A program made the position numbers and the translations under genes. Under the pieces are notes generated by a model. That model was given only the letters and a program-made list of their open reading frames with translations. It searched no databases and was not told the DNA's origin. A DNA stretch of 63,743 bases, counting the filler, from Aduncisulcus paluster (lineage: Eukaryota), in NCBI GenBank assembly GCA_024181965.1. It is 7 parts of 7 records of this genome, joined end to end, with 100 filler letters (N's around TTAATTAATTAA, not from the genome) between each part and the next. Parts side by side here need not be neighbours in the genome. Positions count along the whole stretch, not along the records: positions 36,340 to 46,378 come from BQXS01009714.1; 6 more parts are not named here. One strand, written 5' to 3'. Shown piece by piece: positions 35,339 through 60,376 of the stretch (position 1 is its first letter; each line of letters begins with the position of its first letter).

Positions 35339-35340
35339 CG

Positions 35341-36218
35341 TTCCGAATAAAAGTATTACCATGGTATTACCATATGGTATTAATCTTATGGGAAGAGGCT
35401 TTACCATTAAATATATAATGGTATTACCATGGTAATACTTTTGGTATTACCTTTAAATTTAATGGTATTACCAAAATTATTACCATGGTATTACTTATGG
35501 TATTATTGTGGTAATAATTTTGGTAATACCATGGTAATACCACTAAATTTAATGGTATTTTATTGGTAATACCTATGGTATTATTGTGGTAATACCAATG
35601 GTATTAATCTGGTAATACCATAGGTAATACCATGGTAATACTACTAAAAATAATGGTATTTTATTGGTAATAATTTTGGTATTACCATGGTAATACTTTT
35701 GGTATTACCTTTAAATTTAATGGTATTACCAAAATTATTACCATGGTATTACTTATGGTATTATTGTGGTAATAATTTTGGTAATACCATGGTAATACCA
35801 CTAAATTTAATGGTATTTTATTGGTAATACCTATGGTATTATTGTGGTAATACCAATGGTATTAATCTGGTAATACCATAGGTAATACCATGGTAATACT
35901 ACTAAAAATAATGGTATTTTATTGGTAATAATTTTGGTATTACCATGGTAATAATTATGGTAATACCATGGTAATACCATTATTTGGAATGGTAATACCA
36001 ATATAATCACTAAATTTAATGGTATTTTATTGGTAATACCTATGGTATTATTGTGGTAATACCAATGGTATTAATCTGGTAATACCATAGGTAATACCAT
36101 GGTAATACTACTAAAAATAATGGTATTTTATTGGTAATAATTTTGGTATTACCATGGTAATAATTATGGTAATACCATGGTAATACCATTATTTGGAATA
36201 CCATATAAAGATTCGGAA
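35341..36218. repeat. Palindromic AT-rich array built from GGTATTA(CC)/GGTAATACC/CCATGG modules, with a 258-bp higher-order unit
   Basis: Dozens of direct and inverted copies. The unit recurs at 35420, 35678 and 35936 (partial). An 8-bp inverted repeat TTCCGAAT/ATTCGGAA lies at the ends. Confidence 0.9.
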
Positions 36219-36339: not shown

Positions 36340-36842
36340 TCCGAATGGGGGTATAATCAGGTCTCCATGGGTGTTTTTCAGTTCGAAAATCTTCTTTAGG
36401 AAGGTTTTAGCTATTTCCGTGTCCATTACCAATAAACGTTCGATACAAATACCATTCATAGATGTAGCAGCTCTTCCGGGTTCGATTACTGTTAGTTTCA
36501 GTGCCGTAGTAGTCTGTATTTCGCTCGGAGTCATTGTTTTCATCGGGTACTCACTTTGATTTCGGAGCCATTTGAAGTTGATGGATTGATCTCAATTCCA
36601 GATGTTATAGTACCTTTTCCTTTTTCGATTAATAAAGTTTTCTCTTTTGGATCGGGTTTTTCCATGGCTTTGTCTTCTTCCGCAGACAAAACAACATCTT
36701 TTTCTTCAAGTTCTTTTCCATCAGAAATTTCTTCTTCAGAGTTGTTAGAAACTTCATTTTGTTCTTCAAATTGTTCTTCTTCGTCTATATCTTCGACGGG
36801 TTTCTTCGTTTTCTTCGGGTTTTTGGGTTTCCTCGGAGCCAT
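36340..36842 (-). mobile_element. Probable gag of an LTR element: two ORFs coupled by an ATGA overlap at 36540-36543
   Basis: The second ORF has LLVMDTEIAKTFLKKIFELKNTHG, similar to gag LESLDSENWETFLREIEHYNALGG at 44494. It lies just downstream of an LTR-like element. Confidence 0.5.
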
Positions 36843-36912
36843 GTTTTCTAGCAGGGTTTAATAAAAAAATTTTCAGCAATATCTATCAATCGTTATAAAA
36901 TTGATCAATTTA

Positions 36913-37012
36913 TGGTAGACTGCGATAAAGCTTACGTACAATTTATTAATAAACGAACACATCATAGTCGGTTCTATAAATAGATCCTCTGAGAACCTGC
37001 AAGGATACCACA
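36913..37012 (-). mobile_element. Short LTR-like element (L4)
   Basis: TGTGG...TACCA ends. Shares TTCTCA, a TCTAWTTATAGA hairpin and AATAAATTGTA with L1-L3. Confidence 0.55.
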
Positions 37013-37119
37013 ATTTGACGCCAACTCGAAATAATTTTGCAAGTTTTTTTAGAAATAGTATTATTTTTCGTATGTTTTTATTATTATCTTCATTGTTTTG
37101 TTTTCAGATGTTGGATATA

Positions 37120-37983
37120 TCATAATTTTTTATTTTTGTTAAATTTGGTCATGGCATTGAACATCAATGTTTCTTCGGACTGACTGACTCGAAGAGGAGT
37201 GTTTAGATGATGTACAACGCTGAAGAACCGCTCTATTGATGCACCTGATAATGGTATACTTACCATTTGAAGTGAGAGTGCGTGAAGGTGAAAATAGTCG
37301 TTCAAGAAATTAATCGTGCACGGTTCTTTAACTTTTATACAATATTCCTTTAGTTGTCTTTGTTGAATTTTTGTTATTGGTATGTTTGCTGCATCTATTC
37401 CACTTTTTACATTTTCATAACTTAATTTATATTCTTGTGACCATTCATGTGGTTTTAATGCAACAATTGAATAATATATTTTTAAAAGTTTTTTTAAAAT
37501 GCCATGTGCCTCTTTAAATGGTCGGGAAGTGATTCTTGATGCTTGCCAATCTTTTCGAAGTCTTTCTTCAAAACCGGAAATGACTTCATATGCAGCACAA
37601 TTAGGGATTTCAAATTGTGCTGCCTTAATTGATTTAAGTGCGGTTGGAATAAAATCTTCAGAAAGAGCCGAATTAAATATTTTATAATGATCGTTTTCCA
37701 AGAAATCTATACTTGCTTTTCTACAAGCTGTCAGCGGTTGAAGGAGTTTTAATGCTGGTAAATATATCTCCCAATGATCAATAATTTTTAAATATTCTCT
37801 TAACATCGATTCCCATCGGATTTTGGTGTATTTTATGGGGGGGAGTTTTGTCAAGCTCATCAAAGCTCGGGATGCTTGAGATCCCTCTGAAAAAGAAGAT
37901 TTTATGTTCTCTAAAAAGTCAGGAATCACCTCAAAGAAATGATCAAAATATGACTTAATTAACCATCGTCGCTTTTCCCCCAT
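37120..37983 (-). mobile_element. hAT-superfamily transposase C-terminal fragment
   Basis: IRWES (TRWNS-like) and SIPLSGASIERFFS (hAT C-terminal dimerization motif), then LRVS. Confidence 0.7.
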
Positions 37984-38542
37984 TCTTCCGGTTCTTTTTG
38001 TGTTTCCCGGATGTATATCGACTTCCCGTGGTGTTTCCGACTGTATTTGTTTTGTTTTGTTCTTTTATATGAGGAAATAAGGAAATATTTTTGTCATGTG
38101 CTTCTGAGGTCTCTTTGCTGTTTCCCTGTTTCATATATCTGAGATTCCTCGCTACGATGGTTCTTTTGTATGGAATACGTTCCTATCTTCTATGAAACCA
38201 TCTGTTTTACCTTTCTCCTTGTTTTAACTTCGATTTGTATCGCTCTAATTCATACGATGTCTATGGTGCTTGTCTTTTTTGACCGTCCTTTCATGTCTTG
38301 TTTACCTGTTCGCCAACTAGTGGCCTTTTTGTACATTCACACTGGCTAATAAAGTCCCTATGGTGTATATTCTTGTTAATTTCTTTTCTGACGTCTATTT
38401 CTCGACGTTTCGTTTAATTTCGCTCTTTACCAGTGTATTCTTTCTATGTGTTGCTAATTTTTTGTATTCGTTATTTTTCCGTCTTATTATAGTTATTCTA
38501 TTTATATTTCCTTTCCAATGTTATTTTTTTTATTAGATAAGG

Positions 38543-39697
38543 CTATATATTCACTTCCTTTTTATCTAATCTATTTTTCAAGTTCACATTGGCCTCTAGA
38601 TAAATATCCAATGCTTCACAATCTTTTAATTCTTTGAACGATAACCAACTCGCTTCATCTTCACCATAATCTTCCCATTTCACTTTGAAAGATAGTAGAA
38701 TCTTCCTTCCACCTCTGTGGCGGATTATTTTCTCTATTTTCCATTCTTCTTCGTCTTTCGACTGAAATTTTGCAAGATCTTTTTCTGGAGCTTTCCCAGT
38801 GAATTTTCTCAGCCATCTCTGAGCCACTTCTTGTATTTCACCCCCATCAATCGTTTGGATTTCTGCTTTTTTTCCATCCAACAACTTCATAACTCTGAAC
38901 GGTCCTTTATATAAAGGGCTATTCTTTGATGGTATTTTCTTAAAGTGTTCAAGCAAAACTAATTCTCCTTCAGTGAAAACTTCTCTATCTATTTCTTCTG
39001 ATTCATCTTTTCTTTCTAATCGTTCCTTGAATTCTTCTCTCATGGTTCTTAATGATTTCCATTTGTCCTCTTCCTTTAAGCTTTCTGCCGTGTCTAAGGC
39101 TTTCAATTCTGGACATTTTCTGATGAACATGACTTCGAACGGCGAAGCCCCCAGCTTGCTGTGAGGTCTTGCGTTGATCGCCAGCATTGCTGTCGCAGCA
39201 AACTGGTCATAATCAATTTCATCATTTTCCATTAAATAGATCTTATGGAGCTTTCTGATTTCCAGATTGATCCTTTCAACCACACCATTTTCTTGATGAT
39301 TATACGACATTGTCAGCTTCTTCCTGATGCCTAATCGACGACATAGTTCATTCATAAGTGAGCAATCGAATTGTTTCCCCTGATCTGATCTGAGCCATTG
39401 TGGAGGCCCGAAGATTGCGAAGAAATTCAGCAATTTATATGCAGCTTCTTCAGAAGTTTTGAATATCATCAAATCCGGTACATCCGAAATATCCGTGATT
39501 ACAGCCAGTGTACTGGCTTCAACCATTTCAATCCAGTTTTTTGTTCCCCCAAGAGACTTGTAATGTGTAAGTTCTCGTGTGAACTCTCCCCAATTTTTCG
39601 TATCCAGCGATTTCAAAAAGGGTGGTTTTGGAGGGTCCATAGCGGTGGTTCTTTCGGATTTTTCGGTATCCTTGTTGTTCATAACCTTAATGGCCAT
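38543..39697 (-). mobile_element. Internally deleted Ty3/Gypsy ORF: gag N-terminus fused in frame to partial integrase plus chromodomain
   Basis: PPFLKSLDTKNWGEF..HYKSLGG, then FGPPQWLRSDQGKQF, ENGVVERIN, YKGPFRV and WKIEKIIRHR..FKVKWEDYG. Confidence 0.85.
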
Positions 39698-39708
39698 AGT
39701 ATATATAC

Positions 39709-39792
39709 TGTTGACTGGTTACAATTTATTAAATAAAGGAAAAGGCTTGTGTTCTATAATTAGAACATCCTGAGAAGGTGACATCTCCGACG
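39709..39792 (-). mobile_element. Short LTR-like element (L3), 11 nt upstream of the gag ATG
   Basis: (C)GTCGG...CAACA ends, GTTCTAATTATAGAAC hairpin, AATAAATTGTA. Confidence 0.6.
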
Positions 39793-40605
39793 TCTCTTTG
39801 TCACATCGCCTTGGATAATGGCTTCCAGTTCTGAAATTCCTATCTCTTCTAGATTTGAAGTATCGAGTTCCTTGAGTCGAAATTCTAGATAAAAAAAATC
39901 GAATTCACACATTGATATTGGTGGAACATCTGTAAATCTGTTTGGTTTGATCCCTTCAATCTCCTCGAGAAGTTTTTCGGCTTGGTCTATTTTTGGACCA
40001 CATAAATAATTCCAATTTTCAATTTTTCCCCACTAATGGCCCATCGTGGAAGGGGAAATAACAACAAATAATTACAGAGATAACAAATCGTTATGAATGG
40101 GAAATTATGAAAGTATGATATATGGAGGTATCGTCTAGAAAATGTTGAGGCTCTATCGGAGCAAATATGAGGCCTTTTGATCTGATTATACTATATTGTT
40201 TTGAAAATTTTATCCTGGATGTAATTTCTTGGTTTATCGTCTTAGAGTGACATCGTTATTAGATTCAGCTACAAAGGATGCTAAAATAATGTTTCGGACA
40301 GACATCTGTCGTAATAATAGGTTAGAAAATACAATTGACTAATAATATCGTTATTAACGGTTAATATTACATACTGTTTAGAGTCGGAATTTCCATCAAA
40401 TAAAGCAATTCAGAATACATCTCGGCATATAATGTCTCCGAGATCTCTCGCTTCAAATATTTTCTTGCCATTAGCCTAGCAAATCCAGTCATCCCATCGA
40501 ATAAATGATTGAAATTATTTCACTTTAATGAATAAGAAAATGTTGTTATAACAAAATCAGGCATTGCTTACAAAAAATTCCTCTTCGCCGGCTTCTTCTA
40601 AGTAT

Positions 40606-42478
40606 TCAAGTGAAAAGCTGTCTAATATGTTGGATGAAATCACTTCTTCTCCTATTGGTTGAATAAGAAGGATCACTTCTCGATAAGAAGATACATCCAA
40701 TATCCCAGAGGATATCCTGAAAAGTATCAAGAGTTATGGCTGGAGTTGTATTCCACGTCACTGGTTTTAGTAATGACAATATAAGGGCCCTCCCAGGCAA
40801 ATTCGAGTTTCTTGGGTGGAGGGAACTTCCTGATTAATACGTAAGTACCTGTGGCAATGATATGGCTTACTTTGTGTTCCCTCTCACGCTTTTCAAAGAA
40901 GAGAGCACGTTCTTTACACATTTTAATGTTCTCCGTGAGCTCTTTGACGAATTCATCAACATCTTGTTTGTTCTGAGGAAGTTCGGCTTTGGATTCTTCA
41001 CGAGCTGCAGTGTAGTCAGCTATGAGAGAATTTTCACTTCGTTTGCCCATAATCAGATCAATTGGTTTACATTTTGTTGCAGAATGAGGTGTGTGATTGA
41101 TGATGTTCTGGATGATTGGGATACCCATGTCCCAATCTTCTCTATCAAGAGTGTCATGGATTAATGCTAACAAGTGACGTTTTATCTCTCTGTTGACTCT
41201 TTCAACAGCACCGTTACTCTGTGGATGGTTCGGTGAAGTGACGTGATGGACAATTCCGAAAGTGTCCCAAAGATGATCCATCAGGTAATTGACGTACTGA
41301 AGTTGATTTCGCCGGACATAATTCCGTCCATCGTGAGAAACGGTCAGTCATAACGATGATGTACTCATATCCAGATTTGCTCTGAGGAAATGGACCAACA
41401 GAATCAACACAAATTGTTTGAAATGGGCTTTCAAAGTTAGATCTGAGTCGAGAAACATTTTTGGGCTTGCCAGCTTTTAGCTTCGCACATGTAGGGCACT
41501 CTTTGATCCAGTCACGGATATCAGATGCAATTGATGGCCAGGATATATCTGCAGCCTGGATTTTAAATTGAGTAAGAGAAGACCCATGATGTCCAACCGT
41601 GGCACAGTGAAATTTTTCAAACACCTTTTTCTTCAGATCAACTCTAGCTTGGGGAATGACCTTACGACCCATTTTGTCGACCAAGAAGCCTTCCTCTACT
41701 GTGTACGCTTCTTTCTCTTCGCTTTTGAAGTGCTTTTGCATATTGATGAAGTCATCGGATAGATCTGAAAGAGATACACATAGATGTTTTGAAGATATTT
41801 CACAACCAACACGTAAAAGACCATCTGCCACGACATTTGATTTTCCCTTGACATGAAGAATGTTGAAATCAAAGTCTGCAAGGTATGTCCACCATCTTTG
41901 GACTTTTGATGATTTCGCTTTGTGCATATACAACAGATTGGCATGATCAGTTCTTAGCTCAAATTTGGTTCCTCGCAGGTAATGTTCGCACCTCTCAATG
42001 CAGTATTTGATGGCAAAGGCCTCTTTTTCATTGGTGGACCAACGTTGTTCTCTTGAAGATAAAGCCTTGCTCATGAACATGACAACTCTGGGATTTCCTT
42101 CAGATCCAGGTTGATAAAGAATTCCTCCAATTGCTTTGTCACTTTCATCTGTTTGCAAAATAATTTTTTCTTCAAAGTTAATAAAACTCAGTAATGTCCT
42201 CTTACATATGGCACGTTTGATCTCATCAAATGATTTCTGATGATGAGTGGTCCATGAGAAAACAGCCTTTTTGCTCGTCAGTTCCTGAAGAGGTGCTGCG
42301 TGAGTTGAATAGTCTTTTACAAAATTGCGAAAGAAGTTAAAGAGACCTAAAACACTCCTGACCTGGCTTTTGCTCTTGGGGGGTTGAAGTTCTTTGAGGT
42401 CTTGTATTCTCGATTCTGCCGGACGAATACCTTCTTCAGAAACTTCCCTTCCCAAAAATTCCAATGATGACACGGAGA
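40606..42478 (-). mobile_element. Degenerate Ty3/Gypsy pol: RT C-terminus, RNase H and integrase (frameshifted)
   Basis: EFLGREVS, LGLFNFFR, LQTDES, EKEAFAI, LRTDHANL, GKSNVVADGL, HHCC motif, ICVDSVGPFP, SNGAVERVN and WEGPY. Confidence 0.9.
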
Positions 42479-42546
42479 AAACAGTCTACCGAACCTAAGC
42501 AACCGTTGAAGTTCAGCAAGGGAATCATTTGTAGGATCTGTAATGT

Positions 42547-42620
42547 TTGCCGGACACCGGTGCAGATAGGTCTGTGATAAGTTCGTCTTTGGTCACGGAA
42601 CTGGAAGCTCAAGTCAAGAC
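42547..42620 (+). mobile_element. Retroviral-type aspartic protease remnant
   Basis: LPDTGADRSVIS motif. Confidence 0.5.
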
Positions 42621-42898
42621 CTCGTACAGTATAGTAAAAGTTTATTTAGATGTTATGTGTAAATCGTACATAAACCACCTAGGGACATGTCCCTTGTGGT
42701 GGGCTTGGTCCTACCTGGACATAATGTTGTGGCTGCCACTTCCTCATGCACCACCTTCATCGCCTTAATTCACCGTCACTCACCAGAGTTCCTAGGACAA
42801 TAAGGGTTCATATCGGGCAGTAGAGGGTTCAGCCTTGGATTGTTCTGTGCCTAAAAATGAGTTTCTTGGAAGGATATAATATCTGAAGTCTAAATTTC

Positions 42899-44388
42899 TT
42901 AAAGTTGCACGCGCCACTGTACTACTGAAGTCCAGAGATCTCCTTCTTTTTCGTGAGTCAACGGATCTGGAGGGGCTTTCTCTTCCGTTGCAATGCCGAA
43001 TGGCATTACTGTGTACTTGAAAGTCCCAAAAGGTGTGGTGAAAGCCGTTAGTTTCCTTGCTTTCTTTGCTAAGCTCACCTGGTGAAAACCGGATCTGAAG
43101 TCCAGTGTTCCAAAGACCGTATTTCCTTTTAGTTCTTTTAGTGCCATTTCCATGTTTGGATCAATGTGGGATGGCTTTCTGATGACCCTGTTGAGTCTTC
43201 TGTAATCGACACAAAGCCTCAATGACGTGTTTTTCTTCCTTACTAGCACTATTGGGCTAGCCCAGTCGCTTTCTGATCGTGTAATGAGTCCATCTTCGAG
43301 CAGTTTGTCCAGAGTTTCCTTGGTTATCTTCATGAGGGTGGTGAGAGGAAGCGTGTCTTGCTCTTAATTGGGATCTGATCCTCGTCGATGAGTGAGATTT
43401 CGTATGGTCTCAATCTGGATCCGTCCTTAGGCATCACCGGATTGAAGACCCTTTGGTGCCTCTTCACGATGGCCATGATGGTGTCTCTATGCTCTTCCGG
43501 GGTGCTTATTTCTTGAATTTCCTCGTGAATGTTGACCTTCCTTGGTGGGGTTAGTTCAGGCACGTCAAGTTCGTCGTCCCCGCCATTATCTTTGATCGGA
43601 TTGTCTCCCAGTGCGGATTTCATTATACCGGTGTCGAATAACCAGCGATCTCCTGCCGTAAGATCGTAGTCGTTGATTATATCGCTTACGAAGAATGTGA
43701 AGTCTGCTGTGAGTGGGTGAGTAGTGTTTCTTATCGTGAGCTGTAGTGTATGTTCCTCATCGATGGATACTGTTCTTCCGTCTCTTTGGATGTGTTTGGG
43801 TAAACAGAGTTTTTTCGTTGTTGCATAATCGCGAATCCTTTCGAATAATCGAGGGTGTATCAGATTACAATCTGTACCTGTGTCGGCCAGACCGACTACC
43901 CCGATCCCGTTGATCATACACTCCAGTTCCCTCTCTGGGATTGAACTTCCACTTTTCTTGACGGCTCTGATCTCTTCAGACTCGTCGTCTGCTTTCATTC
44001 TTCGAACTTGATTCTTATCGTCTCTCTGCTTCTTCCTACATTCTTTGATATCGTGTCCTTTCTTCTTACAGTATGAACAATATTTTCCTCTTCTCCTTGA
44101 TGACTGATTCTTTTCCTCCCTGAGGTATCGGGGATCCTTTATCTCCTCGAGAGAAGTGAGTGCCACTTCGAGTGCATCCTCGACTGATCTTATGCTTTGG
44201 ATTCGGATGTCTGCCTCTACAGCTCTTTTGACTGACTTTATCGGAATCATTGTGCTGTAGAGTTACATGGCTTCGGCAATTTGCAATTTGGTGGCTCCAG
44301 TATCATCTAAGATTTCTTTGAACTCGACTGAGAATCTCATTAATTCTTCTGGGGACAGCACTTCTTTGATCCAATTTCCTAAGCCTTG
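42899..44388 (-). mobile_element. Ty3/Gypsy gag-protease-RT fragment, frameshift near 43335, cut at the 5' side by L1
   Basis: Zinc knuckle CSYCKKKGHDIKEC; protease LADTGTD; RT motifs WASPIVLV, LRLCVDYRRLN, LDFRSGFHQ and MPFGI. Confidence 0.9.
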
Positions 44389-44480
44389 TGTTGGGAGTGA
44401 GAAGGTCTATTTTTAGAACCATCACCTCTCTCTGTTTTATTTCAATAAATGTACCAACCTTAAGCTTAGAGGTAGCAACA
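44389..44480 (+). mobile_element. Short 5' LTR-like element (L1, 92 bp)
   Basis: TGTTG...CAACA terminal inverted repeat, AATAAA, and a gag ATG 13 nt downstream. It interrupts another element's gag. Confidence 0.65.
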
Positions 44481-44493
44481 ATAATATTATTGA

Positions 44494-45735
44494 ATGCCTA
44501 AGAATGGTAAAATTGTCAAAATTGGCGTTGCCAAGTTGAAAGAAAAGGAGATCCCAGCACCTTACCTTGAGTCCCTTGATTCCGAGAACTGGGAAACTTT
44601 TCTGCGAGAGATCGAACACTACAATGCACTGGGAGGATGTCGAACGTGGCCTTTTTTATGTTCGTCAAAGGCTTTACGACTTATATCCATCATCGCAGAT
44701 ATCACGGATTTCACCTGTAGAAAGAACCGAGTTTTGGCTAAGAAGATGGTCAGCCAAGTTTATCGGGGTGCCTCACCTCAGAATCTCTCAGATGCACTTA
44801 AAAGAACAAGGATGGAGCATACACTCTCAATGAAAGCCCTATCAGACTACATTTCGGAGTTCGATACGAGTCGAAGCCTCGACCCTGACGCTTTAGAGGG
44901 GAAATCCTTTGTAAACCTCTTCATCGGAGGTCTATTCCCTTCCAGACTGAGAGTCCGCGTCCGTACGGTTATCGGCCCGGACAGCGAAGACGTCGACGAG
45001 GCGATACGACAATCCTTAATTCATGGGAGCGATTTGGTCCGATGTGTGGAAGAGGGTCGCGTTGTGCTGAAGCAACTGGACATCAAGGACCCTCCAAAAG
45101 ATCCAAAACCTTCCCAGCCGGGTCGTGACTCGAAACCCCACTTTAAGGGGAAACCGGAACCTTCAAAAGGTGCTTTTGGTGGGAAAATGAGGAACTTTCA
45201 CACTAAATTTAAGCCGAATGCCTCAAGGAAACACATTTCTGCTGGAAAACCACAAGATAATCCATCTGGCAGGAAGCCCAAGTTTGTGAAGGGAGTCTTC
45301 TGCAAGAGCTGCGATGCCGAGGGTCACTACATCTATAACTGCCCAACCCGCAGTAAAACCGACAGTAAGTATCTCTTTAATATTAACGAAACGGGTAATC
45401 CTTTTAAGACAGCATTTATTTCGAACTCGCCGGATAAGGAACACAAAGTTTCCTATTTGTTAGACACAGGAGCATCCCAGTCAGTTATTACTAGCAAAGC
45501 CGTTTCTTGTTGCGATTTGCCATCGAAATCAACACCAGTTAAAGAAGTATTCCTTGCAAACGGGAGTTCCATCCCTGTCTTAGGTTCCGTGCAGCTCAAC
45601 ATCCGCTTGTTGGGGCCTGATGGAGCGAGTATCTCTTTTCCGGATGAGTGCCTCATCATAAAAGAAGTTTCGGATAAAGCTCCCAACTTGTTAATCGGTA
45701 AGGAAAAAATCGTCTCCCATTCTTGTAGTTTATAG
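44494..45735 (+). mobile_element. Ty3/Gypsy gag-protease ORF, truncated after the protease
   Basis: Zinc knuckle CKSCDAEGHYIYNC; LLDTGASQSVI; LANGS; LLIG. Confidence 0.9.
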
Positions 45736-45742
45736 TAAGAAT

Positions 45743-45836
45743 TGTTTGATACAATTTATTAAGTAAACACAATGGATCCAGAGTCTATAATTAGACCTTG
45801 AGAATCTAAGGATTCCCAACACTACCCCCTCAGAGG
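45743..45836 (-). mobile_element. Short 3' LTR-like element (L2, 45743-45821) preceded by a PPT-like tract
   Basis: Minus strand reads GAGGGGGTAG then TGTTGGG...AAACA, with the same internal motifs as L1, L3 and L4. Confidence 0.65.
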
Positions 45837-45900
45837 CTGGTTCCACGTTGTGTCTTAGAGAGAAAACCTTGAGTAAGGGAAAAGAACTTTAAGTGCTTAC

Positions 45901-46147
45901 AGTATCACGCAGATACTCTCCTGAAATCGCGCAGATTCCAATTGGACAATAAGGGACATCACGCAGATGTTGTACAGGGATCACGCAGATCTCCTTCAGA
46001 CATTCCATCAATATCACGCAGATATTGTATCATAATCACGCAGATTAGTATGTCTTTTATGGTAGCCATATCACGCAGATATTCGGCAAGATATCCCGCA
46101 GATATCATATGGATTATATGCACTTTTTTCGCGCAGAAGGTGTGCAT
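45901..46147 (+). ncRNA. Array of nine stem-loops with a conserved C-NCGCA-G loop (putative structured RNA or ssDNA)
   Basis: Stems differ between copies but stay complementary (AGTATC/GATACT, CAATATC/GATATTG, TAATC/GATTA, GATATC/GATATC and others). Function unknown. Confidence 0.55.
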
Positions 46148-46158
46148 TTTCCATCCAT

Positions 46159-46266
46159 ATTTCATGGATATTTCATGCATGTTTCCTGAATATTTCATGG
46201 ATGTTTCATGAATATTTCATGCATGTTTCATGCATGTTTCATGCATGTTTCATGGATGTTTCATGA
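46159..46266. repeat. 11-bp tandem repeat RTTTCATGVAT, ~10 copies
   Basis: Directly readable units, for example ATTTCATGGAT, ATTTCATGCAT and GTTTCATGCAT. Confidence 0.9.
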
Positions 46267-46478
46267 CTTGAGCTATTGGACATAAAGATGCAGGATCGAG
46301 GGTTAACGCACTTAATCTATCATTAAAATTGCTTTATAACGCTTTCATTATCCTTCCTTCCCCCCTCAGAGGGAGCCTNNNNNNNNNNNNNNNNNNNNNN
46401 NNNNNNNNNNNNNNNNNNNNNNTTAATTAATTAANNNNNNNNNNNNNNNNNNNNNNNNNNNNNNNNNNNNNNNNNNNN

Positions 46479-49400
46479 GAAGATACTGTACCAAAGAACA
46501 AGAATCACAAGAAGCAAGTGAAGAGGAAGAAGAGGAAGAAGAGGAAGAAGAGGAAGAAGAGAGAGAAGAGAGAGGAGAGAGAGACCAAGATATTGTGAAT
46601 GATATTTGTTTCCATTCCCTTCCTCCATTTGAATGTGGAATAGAGTCTCTTGGTGTTAGTGAGAGTGTATCAGAATGTATCAATACTAAGGATTCTGAAC
46701 AAATATGTTTGATTTATGAAGCTATTGCGCAAAAAATACAAGAATTACAGAGAAAGGAAGAAGAGGAAGAAGAGGAAGAAGAGAGAGAAGAGAGAGGAGA
46801 GAGAGACCAAGATATTGTGAATGATATTTGTTTCCATTCCCTTCCTCCATTTGAATGTGGAATAGAGTCTCTTGGTGTTAGTGAGAGTGTATCAGAATGT
46901 ATCAATACTAAGGATTCTGAACAAATATGTTTGATTTATGAAGCTATTGCGCAAAAAATACAAGAATTACAGAGAAAGGAAGAGGAGGAAGAAGAGGAGG
47001 AGGAAGAAGAAGAGGAAGGAAAGAAGGATCAAACTGAGGAAACTTCTGTTCTTTCTCAGAAATCCAAGAGTTCCAAATTTATATCAATTTCTCACCTACC
47101 CTTTTCGGATCTTCTCAAGAACTTACCAACATTTTCTCCCTCAAAAATACTTTCCAATCTCAATGATGTTTTCACTGAGTGTTCATTTGTCACTAAATAT
47201 TGGAAAATGAACGAATCGATAAAAATAGATCACATTGAGAAAGTCCAGAATGGTCTTGAAGATCTTATTGATGTCTTGAATGAATGTGTGACAAAACGAA
47301 ACAAGAAGGAGCCATCGGATGATGATTCCACACAAGTTATTGGTCAAAGTAATAATTATGAAACCCTCGATGATTCAAATCCTAAACTTGACAAACTCAC
47401 CGCTTCCCTCTCGCTTTTCTCCTCCACTCTTGCTTCTCATGATCTATTTTTAGACTCTGACCCGAGCACTACCATTGAAGGCGTTGATAAAGATTCTCAA
47501 GGCCAACATTTGGACAAACAAACTCTATTTTTGTATTCCAAATCCACAGATATTCTTGCCAATTCCTTCATTTCCTCACTTTTTCAGTCTATAATCTCCG
47601 ATTTTAAAGAGGCTGCGAATACTCAGACTGCGTATGCATGTGTTTTGAGGAGCAATGAACAGAAAGAAGCGATTAGAATTAAATATTTGGAGAATTGGGA
47701 ACATAACGTTGAGTGGATAGTGGATGCTCTTCGAAACTGTGAACGCAGACTTGAAAATATCAAAAAATATGGAAATGCAAGTGGAATTGAAGAAGTGAAG
47801 AAGGAAGGAAGAGAAGGAAGAGAAAACAAGGGAATTGATATTTCCGATGAAGATTCTCTATTTCTACCTTCTCGATCTGTATGTTCTCACCAAATCTCCA
47901 AGCAAATTGAGGAAGTGAAGATAATCCAGAATGAAATGGCTGCAATTGCTAGGAATATTGCAACCTTGTTTTGTGATTGGGTGCTATGTGATGAGCCTCT
48001 ATTGAATTTTACTCACGTTGACGGAGTATTCACAGGCCCTACCATTCTCAAACGATTTGTTTCCCTCTCTGAGACACTCATTTCAACCCTTAATACTCTC
48101 TCAGAGATATATTTAGAACGTGAGAAAAGAGCCATTGCTGGAATTATATGTGAACACTACCTTAAACAGATTCAAATGGCCAATGCACGATTCTTTGCCT
48201 GTTTACTGGCCCTATGTGAAATGTTTGAAGATGCAAAACACAAGTTCCATTCGCTTGATCAATGCATTGAGATTCTAAATCGATTGGAAAAGTTGAAAAT
48301 CAGCGTTGAAAAGAAGGAACAAATGCTTTCTCTGATTGAAAACCTTGCTTTCCTCACTGAAGGAGTTGTTGAAGAAGATCTACGTGTTCCATTGGACGGA
48401 GATATTGATATTCTATTGCGAGATATCGGTATTAGTCCAAAAATAGATCAACTTTTGGAAGATTCTGAACAAGGAAAAGATTCCGAGCAACAACAATGTA
48501 TGGTTACGTATAATTCTCCCGTACTTTCTCATTCTATTCTTATCCAACGTTTATCTGCTTCCTCAGCCCTCTCTTTCTCCCTCTCTTCCGCACTCTCCCA
48601 GGTCCATTCCCAAGTCCAAGAAACCATCCATATGATGTCAAATCCTTCCTGTATTAAGGCTTTCAAAGTATGGGCTATAAATATACTCACAGTTTCTCAA
48701 TCTCTTGAGAAAGAATGGAATGATGTTGTAAAGAAGCAATATTTGGACATTGAGAAGAGCAAGAAGAAAAATGAATATATGATGATAGGAGCAAAAAGTG
48801 AAGGCGCGGAAGAAGAAGAAGAAGAAGAAGAAGAATCAGAAGGAGGAGAAGAAGAAGAAGCAAAAAGAGAGGATTCTTTAAGTATTCAAGAGCAAGAGGA
48901 AATGTTGTTTGGTCATACAACACGGTTGATTGCTGTATGTTCAAACATTCTCTCGAAAACAGATCAAGTTATACAAGGAATGAGTTTAGAGAACATTGTG
49001 AAGTCTCCAATCGTTGTTTTGGCTCTTAGCAGTGTATTTTCCTTGATCTCCTTGAAGCAACAAATGAAAAGCTTTTCATCTCAACAATCTGATCGGAAAG
49101 ATCAAGAAAAAGCGTGGCTCCACGCAAGAATTGTTCATTTCAAAAATATTGTCTTCTCATTGTTCGATGTTTGTAAGAAAATTACAACATTAACTTCTCT
49201 GGATGAATGCTATTCCCTTAAATTGTATGTTGAGAGTATCAGTGTCGATATCATTCAACACGACCAGTCTAAAAATAGATTAGTTGAGAAAGATAGAAGA
49301 AGAAGAAGAAGAAGGTGAAGAAAAAGAAGAGATGGGAGAAAGAGAGGAAAGAGTTCAAGCTACGAGTTTTGACTATTTATACCAACACGATAAGACACTA

Positions 49401-52016
49401 GTGTTAATGTTATCCAAGATTAATGATTTAATTGCGCATTGTCACCTTCAAATTGATACGAGAATGAAGATTATCGAATCACATCTTTCAAGTTATCACA
49501 TTTACAAGGACAAAATACACCTTTCATTGCCGATTATTCGTAATTTGGTCGAAATTAACACAAAAATCCAGAATAAGTTGGTAAAAATTACCAAATTCAC
49601 CAAAAAATTGCTTTCTCTCAGTGGTAAACAGCGTAAACTTATCAAGAAAGCTTTGTTGGATATGCCTCCTGTCCCCCCACTCTGTGCCTGTGAGACCAAT
49701 TGTGAAGTGGAAGGTGGTATTGAAGTTGTACGGGAAGTGGAATGGGTTGAACGTCAATTCTCCCTTATATCTATAAGAGATTCACACTCACACGATGCTC
49801 ATGGTGACTCTAGGCTTGGTATTGGATCTTCCACGATGTCTGTTCGGGACAGATCTCTCGATTCGAGCGGAATAGATCCTTTCCATTCTTTCTCTCCATC
49901 CCACGCCTTCTCAATAACCATGTCTCCTTCATCCGCTTCAGTTTCTTCCCAATATGCTGTGTCTCTCCCCAATTCAAAGAAATACAATGAATATGACACT
50001 CAGATACGGAGTTACATGTGTAAAATCATGGAAAATGTTATTTCTGGCGAACGTATGATTGGAAATGTGACCACTGAGATTGAAAAGGCCAAGGATATCC
50101 TCGTTCAGTGCATTCAATACATGTTTCCAATTCCATCATTGTCCTTGGAAGCAACACAATCGGATGAATCTTCCTCAAATCAACCAAAATATATCCCCAA
50201 AATACCCCAAGTTAGTCTAAATATAGAATTTGATTCCATTTATAAGTTTACTCTTGCTCAGTGTGATGATTTAGTTCCCAATTCTTTCCCTAACTTCTGC
50301 TGTGCGCTGTTTGGTTCCTTCACTGGTTGTCTTTCTGTGCTTTTCAAGGCAAGAGAATGCGTGACTAAAATTGGAAACAGTATCGGTGTGAAAAGTGTTG
50401 ATATAATGGGAGTATTGGACCAAAACACACAATCTGAAGGGATATCAAGACGAGGCGTGATTAGAGGAGGTCCGGTTTCAGTTGCAATTTCTCCTTCTTC
50501 CTTTATATCCTCTTCTGTTATTGATAATTCAGCTATTCCTCCATCTCTTCCTCCTTCTCTTCCTCCTTCTCTTCCTCCTTCTCTTCCTCCATCCAAACCT
50601 CCAAGGTCAAGAGTTCTCATCAAACCTCAGAGAGAATCTATGGTACATTCATCAGATATTTCTTGCATGTGCCAAACCTCCTCTCTTCTTCCGCTCTTAC
50701 AGTCCTTCGTATCTTATTTCTCATCTTCAATGGAATACTCTATTTCGATATCAGATTCTGTTTTGGCCCACATTCACTCAATTCTAAATTTATCGCATTC
50801 AGAAATGAGTCTTGTAAGGGGTGGATTAAGAGTGCAAGATATGGAGGAATCAAGAGAAGGATTACGCTCTTTGCCTTCAACCCAATCCTCAGCAAGTAGA
50901 AGAACATTACCATCTTCCTCACCGTTTCTAAATATAGAATCAAAATCAGAGGCTGAACAACTTTTGATTGATATGAATAATGTTCACCTTCGTTTGAGAG
51001 ATACCGGAAATATTTTGACCGTTGTCGACCGGTTCTTGACGGCAGTTATCGGCTGGGAACAGCACCAACAGGACAAACGTCCAAAACAACATGATAGACC
51101 AGAAAACAAATTCCTCTTGCAAGACAAGCCCAAGAAATCCACTCCATTTTCCGAAGATTTGAAGACAATTTTATACTGTCTTGAATTCTTCATTCAAAAA
51201 CTCCCCCAACATGGAGAAATAGAGAAAGATATTGTACAAGATGAGAAAGAATCTGAAGAAGGACGAGAAGAGAGAAGGGAAATGGGTTCTCTTTCAACCA
51301 AGGATCTCAAACCATCCTCTTTCTCATATTCTTGTATTTCACAGCTCAAAGATATTATAATATTGGACTCTCCCCTTCCTCCTTTTGTCATTTATTTTGC
51401 TTGCCACCTTCAATATATTGTTCTGTCTTTCCGTCCAACATTTGTTCATAATTCATTGGCCGTTCGTCTTTTCTTCCCAAGCTCATCGTGTATTGAGAAA
51501 GAAATCAGACTCTTGGAAGATATTGAAGAGAAAAAGAAAGAAAAACTCAAGAAAGAAAGGAGAGATCGACTTCAGCGAATGCACGGAATTGATGGAGAAG
51601 TCTGTGAGCGTTTATATATGGTGTTTGTTGCCAGAACCAAAAGATCTGTTACCAAACCAACAAAACCTATTCTTTCAATTTCAAATGCAAGAGGCAATGC
51701 ATTGAATTCGAGTGATTTATTTGTTTCTTCTGATCTAATTCCCCTCTCGTCATCCCCAAGAGCACTCACAATCACCTCTAAGCTGTCTATTGAGGAATGT
51801 GTCGACATGCTTCGTGGAATGACAAACACAGAAACCTTGGAAGCCCTGGCTTCAGTGGTTTGTGATGGATCATTCATGACTTTTGAGCAGTTTGTGTCTT
51901 TCTATCGTCTTGCATTCAGTGTTGGGGACAATATTCCTGATTGTTTGAAAGATTACTACACTCCTGCTTCGAAATTGGACGAGGACGAGGAATTTTACTC
52001 AGTCGGAGAAGTATAA
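46479..52016 (+). CDS. Very large acidic/Ser-rich hypothetical protein, 5'-truncated, frameshift near 49287
   Basis: ORFs of 907 aa and 910 aa overlap. An exact 222-bp duplication lies near the 5' end. Confidence 0.7.
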
Positions 52017-52250: not shown

Positions 52251-55200
52251 TCAAATGTCGAACCTTTCCAAAGTCTTTAGATTCCTATATACTTCATTCT
52301 TCTTCTTTCCCTTGCTTGGAGGTTTCAGCCTTTCTGGAATCAAACATATAAATGTAAAACAAATCACAAAAATACCAATAGTTAATGTGTAGAAAACAAT
52401 TTGATTCCCCACGTAAGATCTAACATTCTTTATAAATTCAATAGTTTGGTTAATTTTCATGTAATACACGAGACTTACGGCACTTACTGGAGAAAATCCA
52501 ACTCTTTTGGCCGTTTTGGTCCAGATATCTTTCGTTTCCCATGGTTTTAAGTGCTTCATTGATGGTTCATGGAATTGTACGGATGAATTATTATCATTAG
52601 CTTGTGAATTTGACTCTGAACTAACAATATCATCCAATAAAAGATCTTTAAAAGTTGAATAAATGGCACATTCACGTGTGTTATGTCGCAGAATGAAACA
52701 ATGCTTTGTCCAATCGATCAACAGATCCATGATATATACTGATATCATCACACACAATGCAGCAACATGACACGTGACAGACTCAGGCTCAATCCAAGAA
52801 AACTTATCACAGAACCGAGTGATAAGCAAGAGCAAAAACTCTGGAATTATATCAACCCAGGTCTCAGAGGCGAATGACATCAAAACAATATACAAAAGAG
52901 TTGTAAATCGACTATGGGCATCTGCAAGGAATGTTTGAAATATTGTCCGATCCCCCTGACGTCTCAAGACAACCTTTTTGAGAACCNNNNNNNNNNNNNN
53001 NNNNNNGAATGAAACAATGCTTTGTCCAATCGATCAACAGATCCATGATATATACTGATATCATCACACACAATGCAGCAACATGACACGTGACAGACTC
53101 AGGCTCAATCCAAGAAAACTTATCACAGAACCGAGTGATAAGCAAGAGCAAAAACTCTGGAATTATATCAACCCAGGTCTCAGAGGCGAATGACATCAAA
53201 ACAATATACAAAAGAGTTGTAAATCGACTATGGGCATCTGCAAGGAATGTTTGAAATATTGTCCGATCCCCCTGACGTCTCAAGACAACCTTTTTGAGAA
53301 CCTTGAAGCGTGTAGATATCATCAAACTTACCAAACTGACACTCTTGCTTGATATAGCGATCAATAACGTCGTCATTTGGCATTGCATGAGGATAGTATG
53401 GATGACAGAATGTAATAACAGGAATGTTGTTGACACAACGATGGAAAACGGAGAGGATTGGATGGAATCCAGAGACATGGAGGTCAATTGTGAGTGTGTA
53501 GCATCAATATTGGACTGTTTCTCAAACTTATATGACGATTTAAGCTTCAAATGATGAACATGACCCGAAGAAACACCACGGAAAGAACCAGGAACACTCA
53601 GAACACGGTCAGCACCCTGGTCACTACTTGGCTGTGGAATTCTCAGAGTTGGTATAGATTCTTTGGAACGATGGCTATTATCATGACCGCCAATAGACGG
53701 ATACGATGACCGGTTAATACCGGTTTGTCGAGAAGAATCTCGTGGACCCAACTTTAATTTATCCTTTTCCTTTTCGATCTCGATGTTTCTCTTAATGTTT
53801 GAAGCCATTGAAGATAATAAAGGGAGTGTATCAACTGATTTAATATTCTGATAGGGAGATAGATCACCAAACTCACTCTGACTCTCCGAATGGAAACCAG
53901 TACTGTAATTGTGATCATATCCCCGGTTTCTACCGAAGCGAGGAGACGATCTCCCGGAGCCAGACGGCGAGTGTGGTGTGGAAATAGACATAGATAACCT
54001 TGGAGCAGTGAGAGAGAGAGCTAGGCAAGGGAATGGATGAAAATGAAACAACGCTTGTTGGAGATGAAACAGTGCGAGCTGGAAGAGTAGAAGTGGATGT
54101 GGAAGTGGAAGTTCCAAGTAACTCACCAGCAGTATCATCAGCATCGGTGTGGATATTAATAGACACAGATGAATCAGAGTCGGATACACAAGCGGTTGGA
54201 ATTGGTCGAAACGGTTCAAGAGGATCATCCTTTCCTCTTCTGGGAGAGTGTTGTAATGAAGGGTCACTTTTAGAGTCAACCATGCAACCTTGACCACGTG
54301 ATTGGTATAAGAATTTTGAATTAGAATCGGTAGATGCGATGGATACGATCTCATGTTCTTCAATATAGGATGGCACATCAAGTTTCCTGAAAAGATAATG
54401 TGAGACTCTTCTTTTATCCACCTCTTCAGAGTCTTCACCTTGGGAACAAGGATATTCACGCGGCTCTTCCTCTTCGTCTGCCTCTGCCTCTTCTTCTTGT
54501 TCCAAAGATTCTTCCGAGGATTTTTCCCTCGCTTCTCGGTCTTTTCGATCACAACTAAACTCGAGCATCGAATTTTTGAACCGATTGTCATCGTTCGGAA
54601 CAATTTCATGAGAAAATAGATTTGGGGACGAAGAAGAAGAATAGGCACTCTTCTCTTCCTCTGATTCAGATTCTTCACTGGTTCTTGGTTCCTCAGACTC
54701 TTTCTCACTTTCAACGAGGTCTATTTTTGTATTACTGAATAATGATCTACTCATTTGTTTTGCATTAAGAGATTGTCTTCTTGACGGAGTTCTTGGCGGA
54801 GTTTTGATGATTGAATCTTTTCGATCGAAGGAAACACGAGATGAGCAGCGAGGAACACTCTTGGAACTTTGGGGACTTTCTATCACAAGAGATGGAATAG
54901 TCTCTTCTATATTTGTAACATCAGTGATATTTTCTTCTTGAATAGGCTGCGTATCTTCGGTTTCTGTTTCTATTTGCTGTTTTTTCGCCATAGACATGAA
55001 AAAATCAGTCAGAGTTTGACAATCATGTTCGACACTGTCAGATAGGTCTGCAGCGAGACTATTCAATAATCTATCAATAATCACAATAATATTGTAAATT
55101 GTATAGACTTTTAGATATGACTGAGACCTTAGAAAATGATACATCACTGACATATCAAATAACTGATGAAGAATATAAGCTGTCATAATACAAACAGAAA

Positions 55201-55864: not shown

Positions 55865-58800
55865 ATGCTTCAACCTGTCCCACCATCATCCAAAGGTCAG
55901 AGTCGTGGGTCTACAGGGCAAAATAGAGGTTCGATGGGCCATAGAAGTGTAAAACGGCCAAATCTCACTACCTCAGGGAGTGTAGGATCCATAAAACAGA
56001 AATTAACAGTTGACCGAATTAAAAAAATGCATAATCAAAAACAAAAAGAAGAAGAAGCGATTCGGGAGAAGGAAAGATTAGAAAAAGAAGCAAAAGCTAG
56101 AGAGAGAGCTGAACTTGTGGCCAAAGAAGAAAGAATATTACAAGCAGCTCGAGATCAACCCAAAGTTAATGTTAATGATGCCCNNNNNNNNNNNNNNNNN
56201 NNNTCACTACCTCAGGGAGTGTAGGATCCATAAAACAGAAATTAACAGTTGACCGAATTAAAAAAATGCATAATCAAAAACAAAAAGAAGAAGAAGCGAT
56301 TCGGGAGAAGGAAAGATTAGAAAAAGAAGCAAAAGCTAGAGAGAGAGCTGAACTTGTGGCCAAAGAAGAAAGAATATTACAAGCAGCTCGAGATCAACCC
56401 AAAGTTAATGTTAATGATGCCCCTCCTAAGAAGTTACAGAGTGCAGATTCAGAATATCAACAACAACTGGCGGAAATCCAGGAAAGAATTAGCCGAACTT
56501 TATATGCCTATGATAAAAGTAATACTAAAGCTAGATTAATGGAAGAACAGATGGCCCGTGAACAGACAGTTGCTGCCATTGAAGAAGAAACTCGCTTAGA
56601 AGCTCTTGCCAAACAGTCTTCTAGTGCATCAACCGCTTCGATTAAAGGCCCCAAATCATCAAATCCATCTGCTTTACTCATGTCAGAAGGAATATCACGA
56701 GACCTTTCACAACTAACTGTCACCAAGAAAGAAGTGACTGATTTGTTAGATACTGGATTCGGAGCCCTGTCATCTCACCTTGCAAAGAAGCGTATTTCCA
56801 TGCTCATGAAGGATCACGAACTTTTATCGCAACGCCGGGACCTTTATTTGTCCTTACTTGAAGATTGGGTTGTTAACGAGAAGAAATCGACGGAAGAAGA
56901 GCAGAAGTTATGGATGGATGATATGACACGTGTTGTATCACAGCTTAAATCACAGAGAGAGAAGCAGAAAGAGCGTCGTAAGAGACGTGCTGGAGCAGCC
57001 AGTCAAAATCCCTCATCCGCCCTCTCCAGGACCAAAAGTCATACCAGTTCCACGTTATCCCTTGTCAATGGTCCTTCTTCCTCCTCTTCTCGTCCCTCAA
57101 CTTCAGCATCTTTAGCTTCCTCTCCCTCTTCCCAGACATTATCTCATCATCCGAGTGGTGAAATTGATGTTATTCTGGATATGTTTAAACAATTGGAAAA
57201 AGATCGAGAGATTAGAGAATCATCGCCAAATCCTTTATCCCAATTCTCTGAATCTGCAGATGTTGACGGGAATGGAGTGATTTCTCCTGAAGAACTATTT
57301 GCAACACTGCTATCTTTATCCGATCAAGGAGTGATCCCCCAATCTGCTCTATCTTTAGAATCATATGAGAAAGTTCTTGTTCCAACCACCACTCGGCGGG
57401 ACATTGAGAAAATGGAACGAACTGTCCAATCTGTTACAGACCAATTAAACGAGTCCCAGCATTTATGGGTTCATAACAAGGAGCGTCTTGAGAAAATGCG
57501 AGAGTTCTTTCGTTGGCTAATGCAGCAATGGGAGTTGGAAGACCAGGAACAACAAGCTTTTGAAGAAGGCATTCTTGACGCTGAAAGTGGAGCACATCTC
57601 TCTTCAGACGGAGTGTATGATGGCAGTTCTAAGGGTTCAGATTCCTCTTCATCTGCCCGTTCTATTGAAGAAATGAAGAGAAAAATCTCATCGAGACTAC
57701 TTTCAAGGTCAAAATCCTCAGGAAATTCAGCTTTGGTGAGCAAACTTCAGTCTCAATTGCAGCAACAGCAAAACAGCACTCAGCAAGCCCTCCGACGTGT
57801 CCAACTTCTCCTTGCTGCCATTATCCACGTTGCCTCACACACGACAGAAGATTGGGAGACTGATCTTGTGTCCGTTGTTGGGGAGAGAGTGGCTGGTTTA
57901 ATTATCGGTGCTACTAAATCGTCGAAACAAAGGGACGATTCATCAGATATTAAACGAGATGATTATTCTTCTGGTGGAATCTCTGCCAACCTTTTGATGG
58001 ATGATCTTATTGTGAACATGGCTGAAATTAGCACACAAACTGACATTACACACGTTGACGAAAGTTCTCCTCCAAGCATTATTAAGCAATCTGATACTGT
58101 GGGTGGCGTTGAGCAACAAGGGCAAATTGTATATCCTGTCGTAAATGTTTCTTCAGGTGTTGGTAGTAGCGCCCCAAGTAATACTGTGAATAATATTGGG
58201 CATGGTGGGGTTCGATCCCAAGGCTCCATTCCAACACTCATGTCCCCGTATGGAATGGGCTTTGGAAGTGATATTGTAACGGATCCTGCCGAACCAGGCC
58301 GTTCTTTACAAGAGCATCTTAAACAAGTTGAAATTAGTCTCGGTCAGTGGAAAAAGAAGAGAGACGAATTTGACTCTGAAGACCTTGGCCATGTTGATGA
58401 GGAAGGAAACACTGTATTCCCTCCCACACCGATTCTCCCAGCCCTCGACCTCTCAAAAGTTATTCTTATGACACAAAGACCCACCCAAGGATTTGGAGTT
58501 CCGGAGACCACCCACCACCAACAATCATCTTTGGCCCCAGATAAGACTCAAAAGGGAGAAGAATCTGGTACCAATTCCGATGGGATACAAGCTCGTCTCG
58601 ATAAAGCCGAACAAGAGAACAAAGATCTACGCCAAGGAATGTATTCACTCCTCCTGGCAGTTCAGTCTCTTCAACAGGGAGTCAGAGCGAGAGATAGTGA
58701 GATTTTGTTGTACAAAAATGCTCTTAGTTCTTGTGATCAGACCAAAGAGAGGGATATTGTTGTGAAACAGACCATAGATGTGTGCAAGAATGTATTTTTA

Positions 58801-60276: not shown

Positions 60277-60376
60277 NNNNNNNNNNNNNNNNNNNNNNNN
60301 NNNNNNNNNNNNNNNNNNNNTTAATTAATTAANNNNNNNNNNNNNNNNNNNNNNNNNNNNNNNNNNNNNNNNNNNN

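Follow-up and report, generated by a model that had tools for sequence, protein, structure and literature searches.

An array of nine conserved-loop, covarying hairpin-like dyads beside a putative retroelement terminal repeat in the fornicate protist Aduncisulcus paluster

Introduction

Several described systems resemble, in one respect or another, an array of nine hairpin-like dyads that we analysed at positions 45901 to 46147 of a 63,743-base stretch of DNA (the window) from the protist Aduncisulcus paluster. Ty3/gypsy elements of plants are known to carry tandem repeats in their 3' untranslated regions (UTRs), and those of the Tat/Ogre elements are hypervariable (Macas et al. 2009, as cited in PMC7004042). 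In such elements, the repeats occupy the stretch from the last coding region to the 3' long terminal repeat (LTR), vary in copy number, and can seed satellites. The A. paluster locus shows a comparable picture, in that one paralogous copy lacks two units and the array adjoins a purine run and an LTR-like block. The hosts differ, however, being plants in the one case and a fornicate protist in the other; the pol region of the array's presumed element would lie off the contig; and the diverged units here keep a covarying hairpin, whereas PMC7004042 mentions neither hairpin nor palindrome. On sequence grounds, the array appears to be a cis-acting repeat of a known kind, in the 3' tail of a retroelement, and its covarying, conserved-loop hairpins would be the new feature.

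Other systems share structure rather than family. The constitutive transport element (CTE) of Mason-Pfizer monkey virus, like related export or stability elements at the 3' terminus of retroviruses, is a cis-acting structured RNA located downstream of the last gene and upstream of the 3' LTR, and its repeated motif recruits a host factor to unspliced RNA. It consists of one long stem with two internal loops, and in betaretroviruses it immediately precedes the polypurine tract and 3' LTR; the A. paluster array, in contrast, comprises nine separate hairpins, its sequence is unrelated, and Rfam holds no match to it. The packaging stem-loops of RNA viruses and the Psi hairpins of retroviruses combine variable stems with one short loop motif that capsid or nucleocapsid reads multivalently. 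Such signals are dispersed over the genome or lie in the 5' leader and have degenerate loop motifs, whereas here nine near-identical loops fall within 250 nt near the 3' end. The Su(Hw) array of Drosophila gypsy likewise places about a dozen short conserved motifs in a noncoding part of a Ty3/gypsy element, but it lies in the 5' untranslated region, acts on duplex DNA, is not known to have complementary flanks, and has a motif unlike the core described below. REP/BIME repeats and integron attC sites are hairpin-forming DNA repeats in which structure is kept above sequence and which proteins read in single-stranded form. They are prokaryotic, have other sizes and motifs, and depend on tyrosine transposases or integrases, of which, for such systems, we found no sign here.

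A. paluster is a free-living fornicate, related to Giardia, whose published draft genome is highly fragmented (25,863 contigs, N50 of 4.6 kb, GC content of 39.1%; PMC9933649). The window (38.7% GC) is a chain of small contigs of this genome, joined by 44 N, TTAATTAATTAA, and another 44 N, and the array lies close to the right end of the contig that occupies window positions 36340-46378. The retroelements of metamonad protists are almost unstudied, and a full-text literature search found no paper pairing Aduncisulcus with a retrotransposon; nor did it find a comparable LTR-retrotransposon array of conserved-loop stem-loops. We conclude below that the best reading of the array is a platform of protein-binding hairpins, on RNA or single-stranded DNA, as the first-pass annotation of this DNA had proposed. 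The full version of that reading, which we advance tentatively, as possible rather than probable, places the array in the 3' noncoding region of a minus-oriented Ty3/gypsy-type retroelement, whose hairpins would be maintained as a multivalent platform on the RNA at which Gag or nucleocapsid may dock.

Results and discussion

Nine dyads share a core in one orientation

The array and the tandem repeat in phase with it comprise the following features, none of which is assigned to a strand.

45901..46147: nine hairpin-like dyads, the whole array, identified from sequence and pairing statistics
45901..45917: hairpin 1, AGTATC / ACGCA / GATACT
45925..45937: hairpin 2, AATC / GCGCA / GATT; the weakest, with minus-strand wobbles that lengthen the stem
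45955..45971: hairpin 3, GACATC / ACGCA / GATGTT; one plus-strand G-T
45977..45993: hairpin 4, GGGATC / ACGCA / GATCTC; one plus-strand G-T
46009..46027: hairpin 5, CAATATC / ACGCA / GATATTG
46033..46047: hairpin 6, TAATC / ACGCA / GATTA
46065..46087: hairpin 7, GCC-ATATC / ACGCA / GATAT-tc-GGC
46090..46106: hairpin 8, GATATC / CCGCA / GATATC
46118..46147: hairpin 9, outer helix ATGCAC/GTGCAT, with TTTTC / GCGCA / GAAGG inside; degenerate core TTCGCGCAGAA
46143..46265: 11-bp tandem repeat TGCATGTTTCA, 11.2 copies

The core ATCNCGCAGAT occurs exactly eight times in the window, always on the plus strand and within 45904-46103, where 0.13 occurrences would be expected by chance and 0 of 100 shuffles yielded at least eight. 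The ninth site, TTCGCGCAGAA at 46128, has two mismatches to it. Elsewhere in the window, 39 sites with up to two mismatches were found against 53.3 expected, which is at or below chance. The cores start at 45904, 45926, 45958, 45980, 46013, 46035, 46070, 46093, and 46128, and all nine sites run in one direction. Their loops read ACGCA six times, GCGCA twice, and CCGCA once, each closed by a C-G pair; the first-pass annotation had listed the start, type, and closing pair of each of these nine loops, and its coordinates and sequences are all correct. Read on the minus strand in RNA letters, the loops become UGCGU (six), UGCGC (two), and UGCGG (one).

The flanks of the core pair and covary

All evidence on the array comes from one locus of a fragmentary genome. 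Beyond the ATC/GAT of the core, the flanks of the eight exact sites form Watson-Crick pairs in 8/8 cases at position 1, 6/8 at position 2, and 5/8 at position 3 (8/8, 7/8, and 6/8 when G-T is allowed), and at position 4 pairing drops to the chance level of 2/8. Contiguous Watson-Crick extension sums to 18 over these sites, compared with 4.9 when partners are re-dealt (18 was reached in 6 of 100,000 trials) and 2.8 for random flanks of local composition (0 of 100,000). At flank position 1, each of the four sites that depart from the commonest pair, T-A, carries a double-sided change (to A-T in two sites, and to C-G and G-C in one each), and single-sided changes number 0. Covariation was scored on an alignment of nine hairpin rows with a 6-bp stem, with 500 shuffles and with slid registers as controls. 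Cells were paired in 92.6% of cases (73.7% in shuffles), 10 cells had changed on both sides (3.2 in shuffles), and the covariation score was 0.574 (0.163 in shuffles, at most 0.26 in the slid controls), none of which was equalled in the 500 shuffles; the same held for 4 of the 5 covariation measures overall.

A natural control came from a scan of metagenome and viral collections for the two-core pattern, which returned 50 and 2 loci, respectively, and no homologous array. Among 168 occurrences of the same core in these 52 unrelated loci, the extension was 0 in 96, 1 in 68, and 2 in 4, and it never reached 3 or more. We rejected the 52 loci as relatives of the array, since each is either a tandem repeat of fixed unit or coding sequence, and their flanks do not pair (at least three paired in 0/168). 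When a covariance model of the hairpins was run on the window, it recovered the nine sites on which it had been trained (E values of 3.5e-06 to 0.11) and no others (next best, 1.2). An Rfam cmscan of positions 40000-50000 on both strands, at E values up to 1, left the array without a match, its one hit being a weak, unrelated snoRNA at 47841-47915, in keeping with the earlier remark that no described family was recognizable.

The compensatory flank pattern is statistically real, which bears out the earlier observation that outer stems change from copy to copy and still pair. The further claim that compensatory change implies selection stands in part: the pattern holds, but the nine units are paralogous, and a mutational origin by template switching could also produce it. 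Because the loop and the top three pairs are invariant while the lower stem is variable yet paired, we favor a single-strand hairpin whose loop and top pairs would be read by a protein. The same conservation of the 11-bp core, perfect even in its asymmetric centre, could instead mark an array of sites on duplex DNA that a sequence-specific protein, perhaps a dimeric one, would bind; the retroelement would then carry a module resembling an enhancer or insulator, comparable to the Su(Hw) array of gypsy. Such an array would fit the pairing of sites at 22-23 bp (two helical turns), with pairs 54-58 bp apart, the ATC-N5-GAT dyad of the type that dimeric proteins read, and the TATA-like and AATAAA motifs close by. 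It gives no cause, however, for the complementarity of the nonconserved flanks, and flanks that are not contacted have no reason to remain complementary, which disfavors a duplex site. With all nine sites facing the same way and the later spacings (35, 23, 35) leaving helical phase, we regard this explanation as unlikely.

The array probably grew from a short tandem repeat

Core-to-core spacings of 22/32/22/33/22/35/23/35 divide the array into two-site units of ~55 bp, of which it holds about four and a half. The unit of the 11-bp tandem repeat, TTCATGCATGT, agrees with the core at 7 of 11 letters; it also has CATG(CATG) dyads of its own. Together, the ~55-bp units and the in-phase 11-bp tandem with its 7/11 core letters make an origin of the array from a short tandem repeat likely on sequence grounds. 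Coding potential appears absent, as a Pfam search of the open reading frames (ORFs) that cross the array gave no match and the 22/33/55 spacing does not keep to multiples of 3. Within the linkers, agreement with the core at inner positions is at the chance level (13 of 60 cases, versus 14.3 in shuffles). The linkers had been described as unrelated to each other; this holds for the short ones, whose mutual similarity is at chance (470 of 2,000 shuffles reach it), but the long ones keep a faint leftover similarity (25 of 2,000). We also considered the linkers as decayed 11-mers and rejected the idea, as their in-phase likeness to the core (48/132 versus 34.2) comes from end positions alone. Only the core and the pairing of its flanks are kept, and the remaining material has drifted.

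One diverged paralogue contig of single-copy depth (see below) skips 45919 to 46032, which amounts to 112 bp or two units. It differs from the array at 19 positions, 1 among 85 hairpin letters and 18 among 142 others (one-sided Fisher p = 0.0012, a generous value because the difference events are clustered). Its only hairpin change is 46067 C>A, which replaces a mismatch in hairpin 7 by a sixth contiguous pair, and the outer GCC helix of that hairpin is lost.

These data bear on a second explanation, in which a function-less, dyad-symmetric short tandem repeat has its pairing restored by template switching, during replication or by reverse transcriptase (RT), that copies one arm from the other. 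Any repeat unit with complementary ends (ATC...GAT) would automatically yield junctions able to form hairpins, and it is in such quasi-palindromes that the switching would occur. Spacings near multiples of 11 and an array in phase with an 11-bp tandem sharing 7/11 core letters are what such a history would leave; the commonest flanks (GAT|core|ATC) equal the head-to-tail product of an 11-mer, and pairing ends after three flank positions, as this origin predicts. An unrelated dyad-symmetric 11-bp array, TGGTAATACCA, stands at another contig end, and one template-switching event can both create and repair a hairpin stem (PMC8794818). Set against this, eight perfect cores beside inner linkers at chance would need selection or very selective conversion, flank position 1 has its four double-sided changes and no single-sided one, and the paralogous copy has altered linkers rather than hairpins. 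We judge template switching alone to be a somewhat unlikely explanation. Were it correct, the locus would show how compensatory evolution can be mimicked in a sequence that has no function, and would serve as a caution when RNAs are sought by covariation.

The TGGTAATACCA array is itself dense, with ~37 copies of this 11-mer in both orientations at window positions 35340-36200. It extends from the stop codon of an ORF to the end of the contig that precedes the array's in the window, and has higher-order periods of 23, 46, 78, 101, 209, and 258. Taken with the tandem at 46143-46265, it points to a tendency of the A. paluster genome to form 11-bp dyad repeats.

The array belongs to a repeat that ends in an LTR-like block

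Copy number was estimated from the depth of contigs, from one public DNA run, that cover the stretch. Long contigs over the gag-protease ORF flanking the array and its paralogues have depths of 1,098-1,222, which we took as the single-copy level, and the two array contigs have depths of 10,199 and 10,903, equivalent to ~8-9 copies. The array is therefore part of a repeat with ~8-9 copies per genome. The unique contig on the left stops at 45751, placing the boundary between repeat and unique sequence near 45722, and here we found the first of four homologous blocks. These blocks, the purine runs, and the flanking ORF are as follows.

45722..45821, minus: LTR-like block of ~100 bp, recognized from homologous blocks and depth; 80 nt from the first hairpin
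44388..44485, plus: homologous LTR-like block, directly upstream of the plus-strand gag-protease ORF
39705..39801, minus: homologous LTR-like block; the minus-strand ORF that follows it directly has a gag-like N terminus
36909..37004, minus: fourth homologous block, followed after ~70 nt by a minus-strand ATG (36841)
45822..45836, minus: purine run, candidate polypurine tract, reading CCTCTGAGGGGGTAG and abutting the TG start of the 45722-45821 block
46351..46372, minus: second purine run, candidate polypurine tract, with the 12-mer CCTCTGAGGGGG at 46361-46372
44494..45735, plus: ORF for gag (CCHC knuckle) and aspartic protease, Ty3/gypsy type, another element copy

On the minus strand, the block at 45722-45821 starts with TGTTGGGAATCC (TGTTGG) and ends with ...AACTACA(AG). 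It thus has TG...CA termini, and its ...ACTACA end at 45724 lies within 2 nt of the presumed repeat/unique boundary; it also contains a TATA-like TCTAATTATAG and AATAAA. Local alignment of 45715-45845 (minus) to the other blocks gave scores of 37, 26, and 23, which 0, 2, and 17 of 1,000 shuffles reached. The array-side block is homologous to blocks upstream of two gag-like ORFs, as a terminal repeat would be, and the homology begins at TG (TGTTGG or TGTGG) in 3 of the 4 blocks. A sensitive search of the window revealed no LTR-like copy beyond these four, and BLAST of 45736-46378 against the window matched only itself, with no second copy of the array region. Summed depth over the block is ~89 times the single-copy level, and one other contig diverges from the array copy beyond 45822. 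We infer that the block is the 3' LTR of a minus-oriented element.

The purine runs are consistent with this assignment. Directly before the TG of the block stands GAGGGGGTAG, as a polypurine tract adjoining a 3' LTR would. Its 12-mer CCTCTGAGGGGG recurs once, 536 bp up-sense, inside the purine run at 46351-46367, and the contig ends 6 nt on; by our own arithmetic, the chance of such a recurrence within 650 nt is roughly 0.01.

The flanking ORF appears to mark the insertion target of the array-bearing element. The only relative found for the gag-protease ORF is a 633-residue protein from the same species (48% identity) that continues into RT; homology to it ends at 45714, so this copy is cut off just where the repeat begins.

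A multivalent docking platform is the preferred reading

We propose that the array, as the 3' noncoding region of a minus-oriented retroelement, is organized as follows. The coding body of the element would lie beyond the contig end at 46378. In the sense of the element (minus strand), the order would be a purine run, a spacer of ~85 nt, eleven 11-nt repeats, the nine stem-loops with stems of 4-7 bp (in two parts in hairpins 7 and 9) and the 5-nt loop UGCGN, a spacer of ~64 nt, a second identical purine run serving as polypurine tract, the ~100-bp terminal repeat, and finally the insertion site within the gag-protease/RT junction of another retroelement. Such an array could have arisen by short tandem duplication of ~55-bp two-site units, followed by drift of everything but the 11-nt core and three pairing flank bases. 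On the genomic RNA, the nine hairpins would act jointly as a multivalent docking platform. Their partner may be the element's own zinc-knuckle Gag or nucleocapsid, in selective packaging, or alternatively a host factor that exports or stabilizes unspliced RNA. The zinc knuckles of retroviral nucleocapsid proteins recognize G-x-G when it is unpaired in the loop of a hairpin, and UGCGN shows such a pattern; both retroelement copies near the array encode CCHC knuckles. If the array is a working signal, it offers a clean natural case of multivalent hairpin recognition, with nine near-identical loops on nine different stems in 250 nt, and a case in which a tandem repeat in a retroelement 3' tail was turned into a functional RNA platform. 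More specifically, though with considerable doubt, we speculate that nine stem-loops with an invariant UGCG-type loop between two identical polypurine tracts constitute a previously undescribed cis-acting signal, either a nucleocapsid platform or a controller of second-strand synthesis. Such a compact, array-type packaging or reverse-transcription signal would have no counterpart among characterized retroviruses and retrotransposons.

Several points weigh against the retroelement platform. The covariation rows are paralogous units of one array. Each of the nine sites alone is predicted to fold, as RNA and as DNA, into the hairpin listed above, so that the folding check on both strands came out as anticipated, but the single hairpins are weak (-1.8 to -9.3 kcal/mol as RNA) and the stability of the whole array exceeds that of shuffles only modestly (z = -2.0 on the plus strand and -0.96 on the minus strand, the proposed RNA sense). 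The extension favors neither strand, totalling 21 with plus-strand wobbles and 22 with minus-strand wobbles. At ~100 bp, the block is unusually short for an LTR, which usually measures hundreds of base pairs. We found no clear TGG-type primer-binding site after the other LTR-like blocks, no purine run before the fourth block (36909-37004), no target-site duplication or partner LTR within the contig ending at 46378, and no array at the homologous position of another copy (39800-40760). Away from any retroelement, the same genome also has the TGGTAATACCA array of 11-bp dyads (~35340-36200), a hint that such arrays reflect how this genome mutates and not a function. Finally, a long LTR may enclose the array in place of a ~100-bp one; against this alternative, homology starts at TG in three of the four copies and depth falls near 45822.

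The docking platform assumes RNA. Single-stranded DNA is the substrate in a further explanation, by which the hairpins form in the first (minus) strand cDNA, corresponding to the plus sense of the window, and there hold up or direct strand transfer or the synthesis of the second strand. Flanked by identical purine runs in a minus-oriented element, the array would occupy the stretch that stays single-stranded longest; G-T wobbles number four on the plus strand and one or two on the minus strand, and it is the plus strand that folds slightly better relative to shuffles. But as DNA the hairpins have very little stability (-1.2 to -4.6 kcal/mol), wobbles are too few for significance, summed RNA hairpin energies favor the minus strand (-52.4 versus -48.4 kcal/mol on the plus strand), and we know of no precedent for such a role. 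We consider this explanation improbable. The strand bias of wobbles to which the first-pass annotation had pointed is, in view of these totals and energies, uninformative. Its appeal to the very stable C-GCA-G DNA mini-loop fails as well, because that loop is out of register with the covarying ATC/GAT stem and goes unused in the DNA folds. Its suggestion that the plus strand is the first-strand cDNA of the neighbouring minus-strand element is right about orientation, given the LTR-like block at 45722-45821, but wrong about the element if this is taken to be the chromovirus described next.

Neighbouring retroelements

Beside the array lies a degenerate chromovirus on the minus strand, at 38543-44262, with the following domain matches.

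43330-44262, minus: zinc knuckle and protease
42899-43363, minus: RT
41214-42485, minus: RNase H and integrase
38543-39718, minus: integrase with chromodomain

This chromovirus was examined as the owner of the array and rejected. The plus-strand gag-protease fragment (44494-45735) intervenes between the two, their copy numbers are ~8-fold apart, and the contig holds no matching LTR copy of the array region.

The ORF at 38543-39718 is chimeric. Its first ~70 residues resemble the gag N terminus of the A. paluster relative (37.5% identity to residues 4-67), and the rest consists of an integrase core and chromodomain, which suggests an internally deleted or recombined element right behind an LTR-like block. 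A 314-residue ORF at 37120-38064 (minus) gave a weak match to the C-terminal dimerization domain of hAT transposases (E = 0.056) and contains an ...SGASIERFFS... motif typical of these enzymes; it is probably a hAT transposase fragment within the retroelement nest. The minus-strand ORF that begins at the ATG at 36841 is broken at ~36540-36600 by a stretch GTGAGT...CAG, which may be a spliceosomal intron of ~45 nt.

Other observations

An ORF on a neighbouring contig is 99% identical to a Tapt1-family protein of A. paluster. Five further ORFs are very long (907-1675 residues) and uninterrupted, at 29773-34800 (plus), 56266-60324 (plus), 1203-5360 (minus), 46595-49318 (plus), and 49284-52016 (plus). 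They contain no Pfam domain at E values up to 0.01 and, to judge by their sequences, appear to encode lineage-specific orphan proteins.

Two-copy direct repeats of 316-351 bp with 100% identity occur at 21513-22194 and 52691-53302, where they straddle 20-N gaps (21844-21863 and 52987-53006); these are apparently contig ends that overlap and that scaffolding failed to merge, rather than biology. Another two repeats, also in two copies (249 bp and 222 bp, 97-99% identity), lie at 20344-20853 and 46528-47014 and span no gap.

Within the scan for the two-core pattern, one family of loci (L004, L008, L011, L016, L019, L021, L027, L028, L030, L031, L039, L044, L045, and L047, with the variant L049) comes from metagenome contigs of high GC content (64-72%). 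Its members carry two or three tandem 23-bp units, each consisting of CGCCGCATCGTG and the same 11-mer, with conserved flanks and mostly near a contig end. This family resembles the terminus of an uncharacterized mobile or repeat element of bacteria and has no relation to the protist array.

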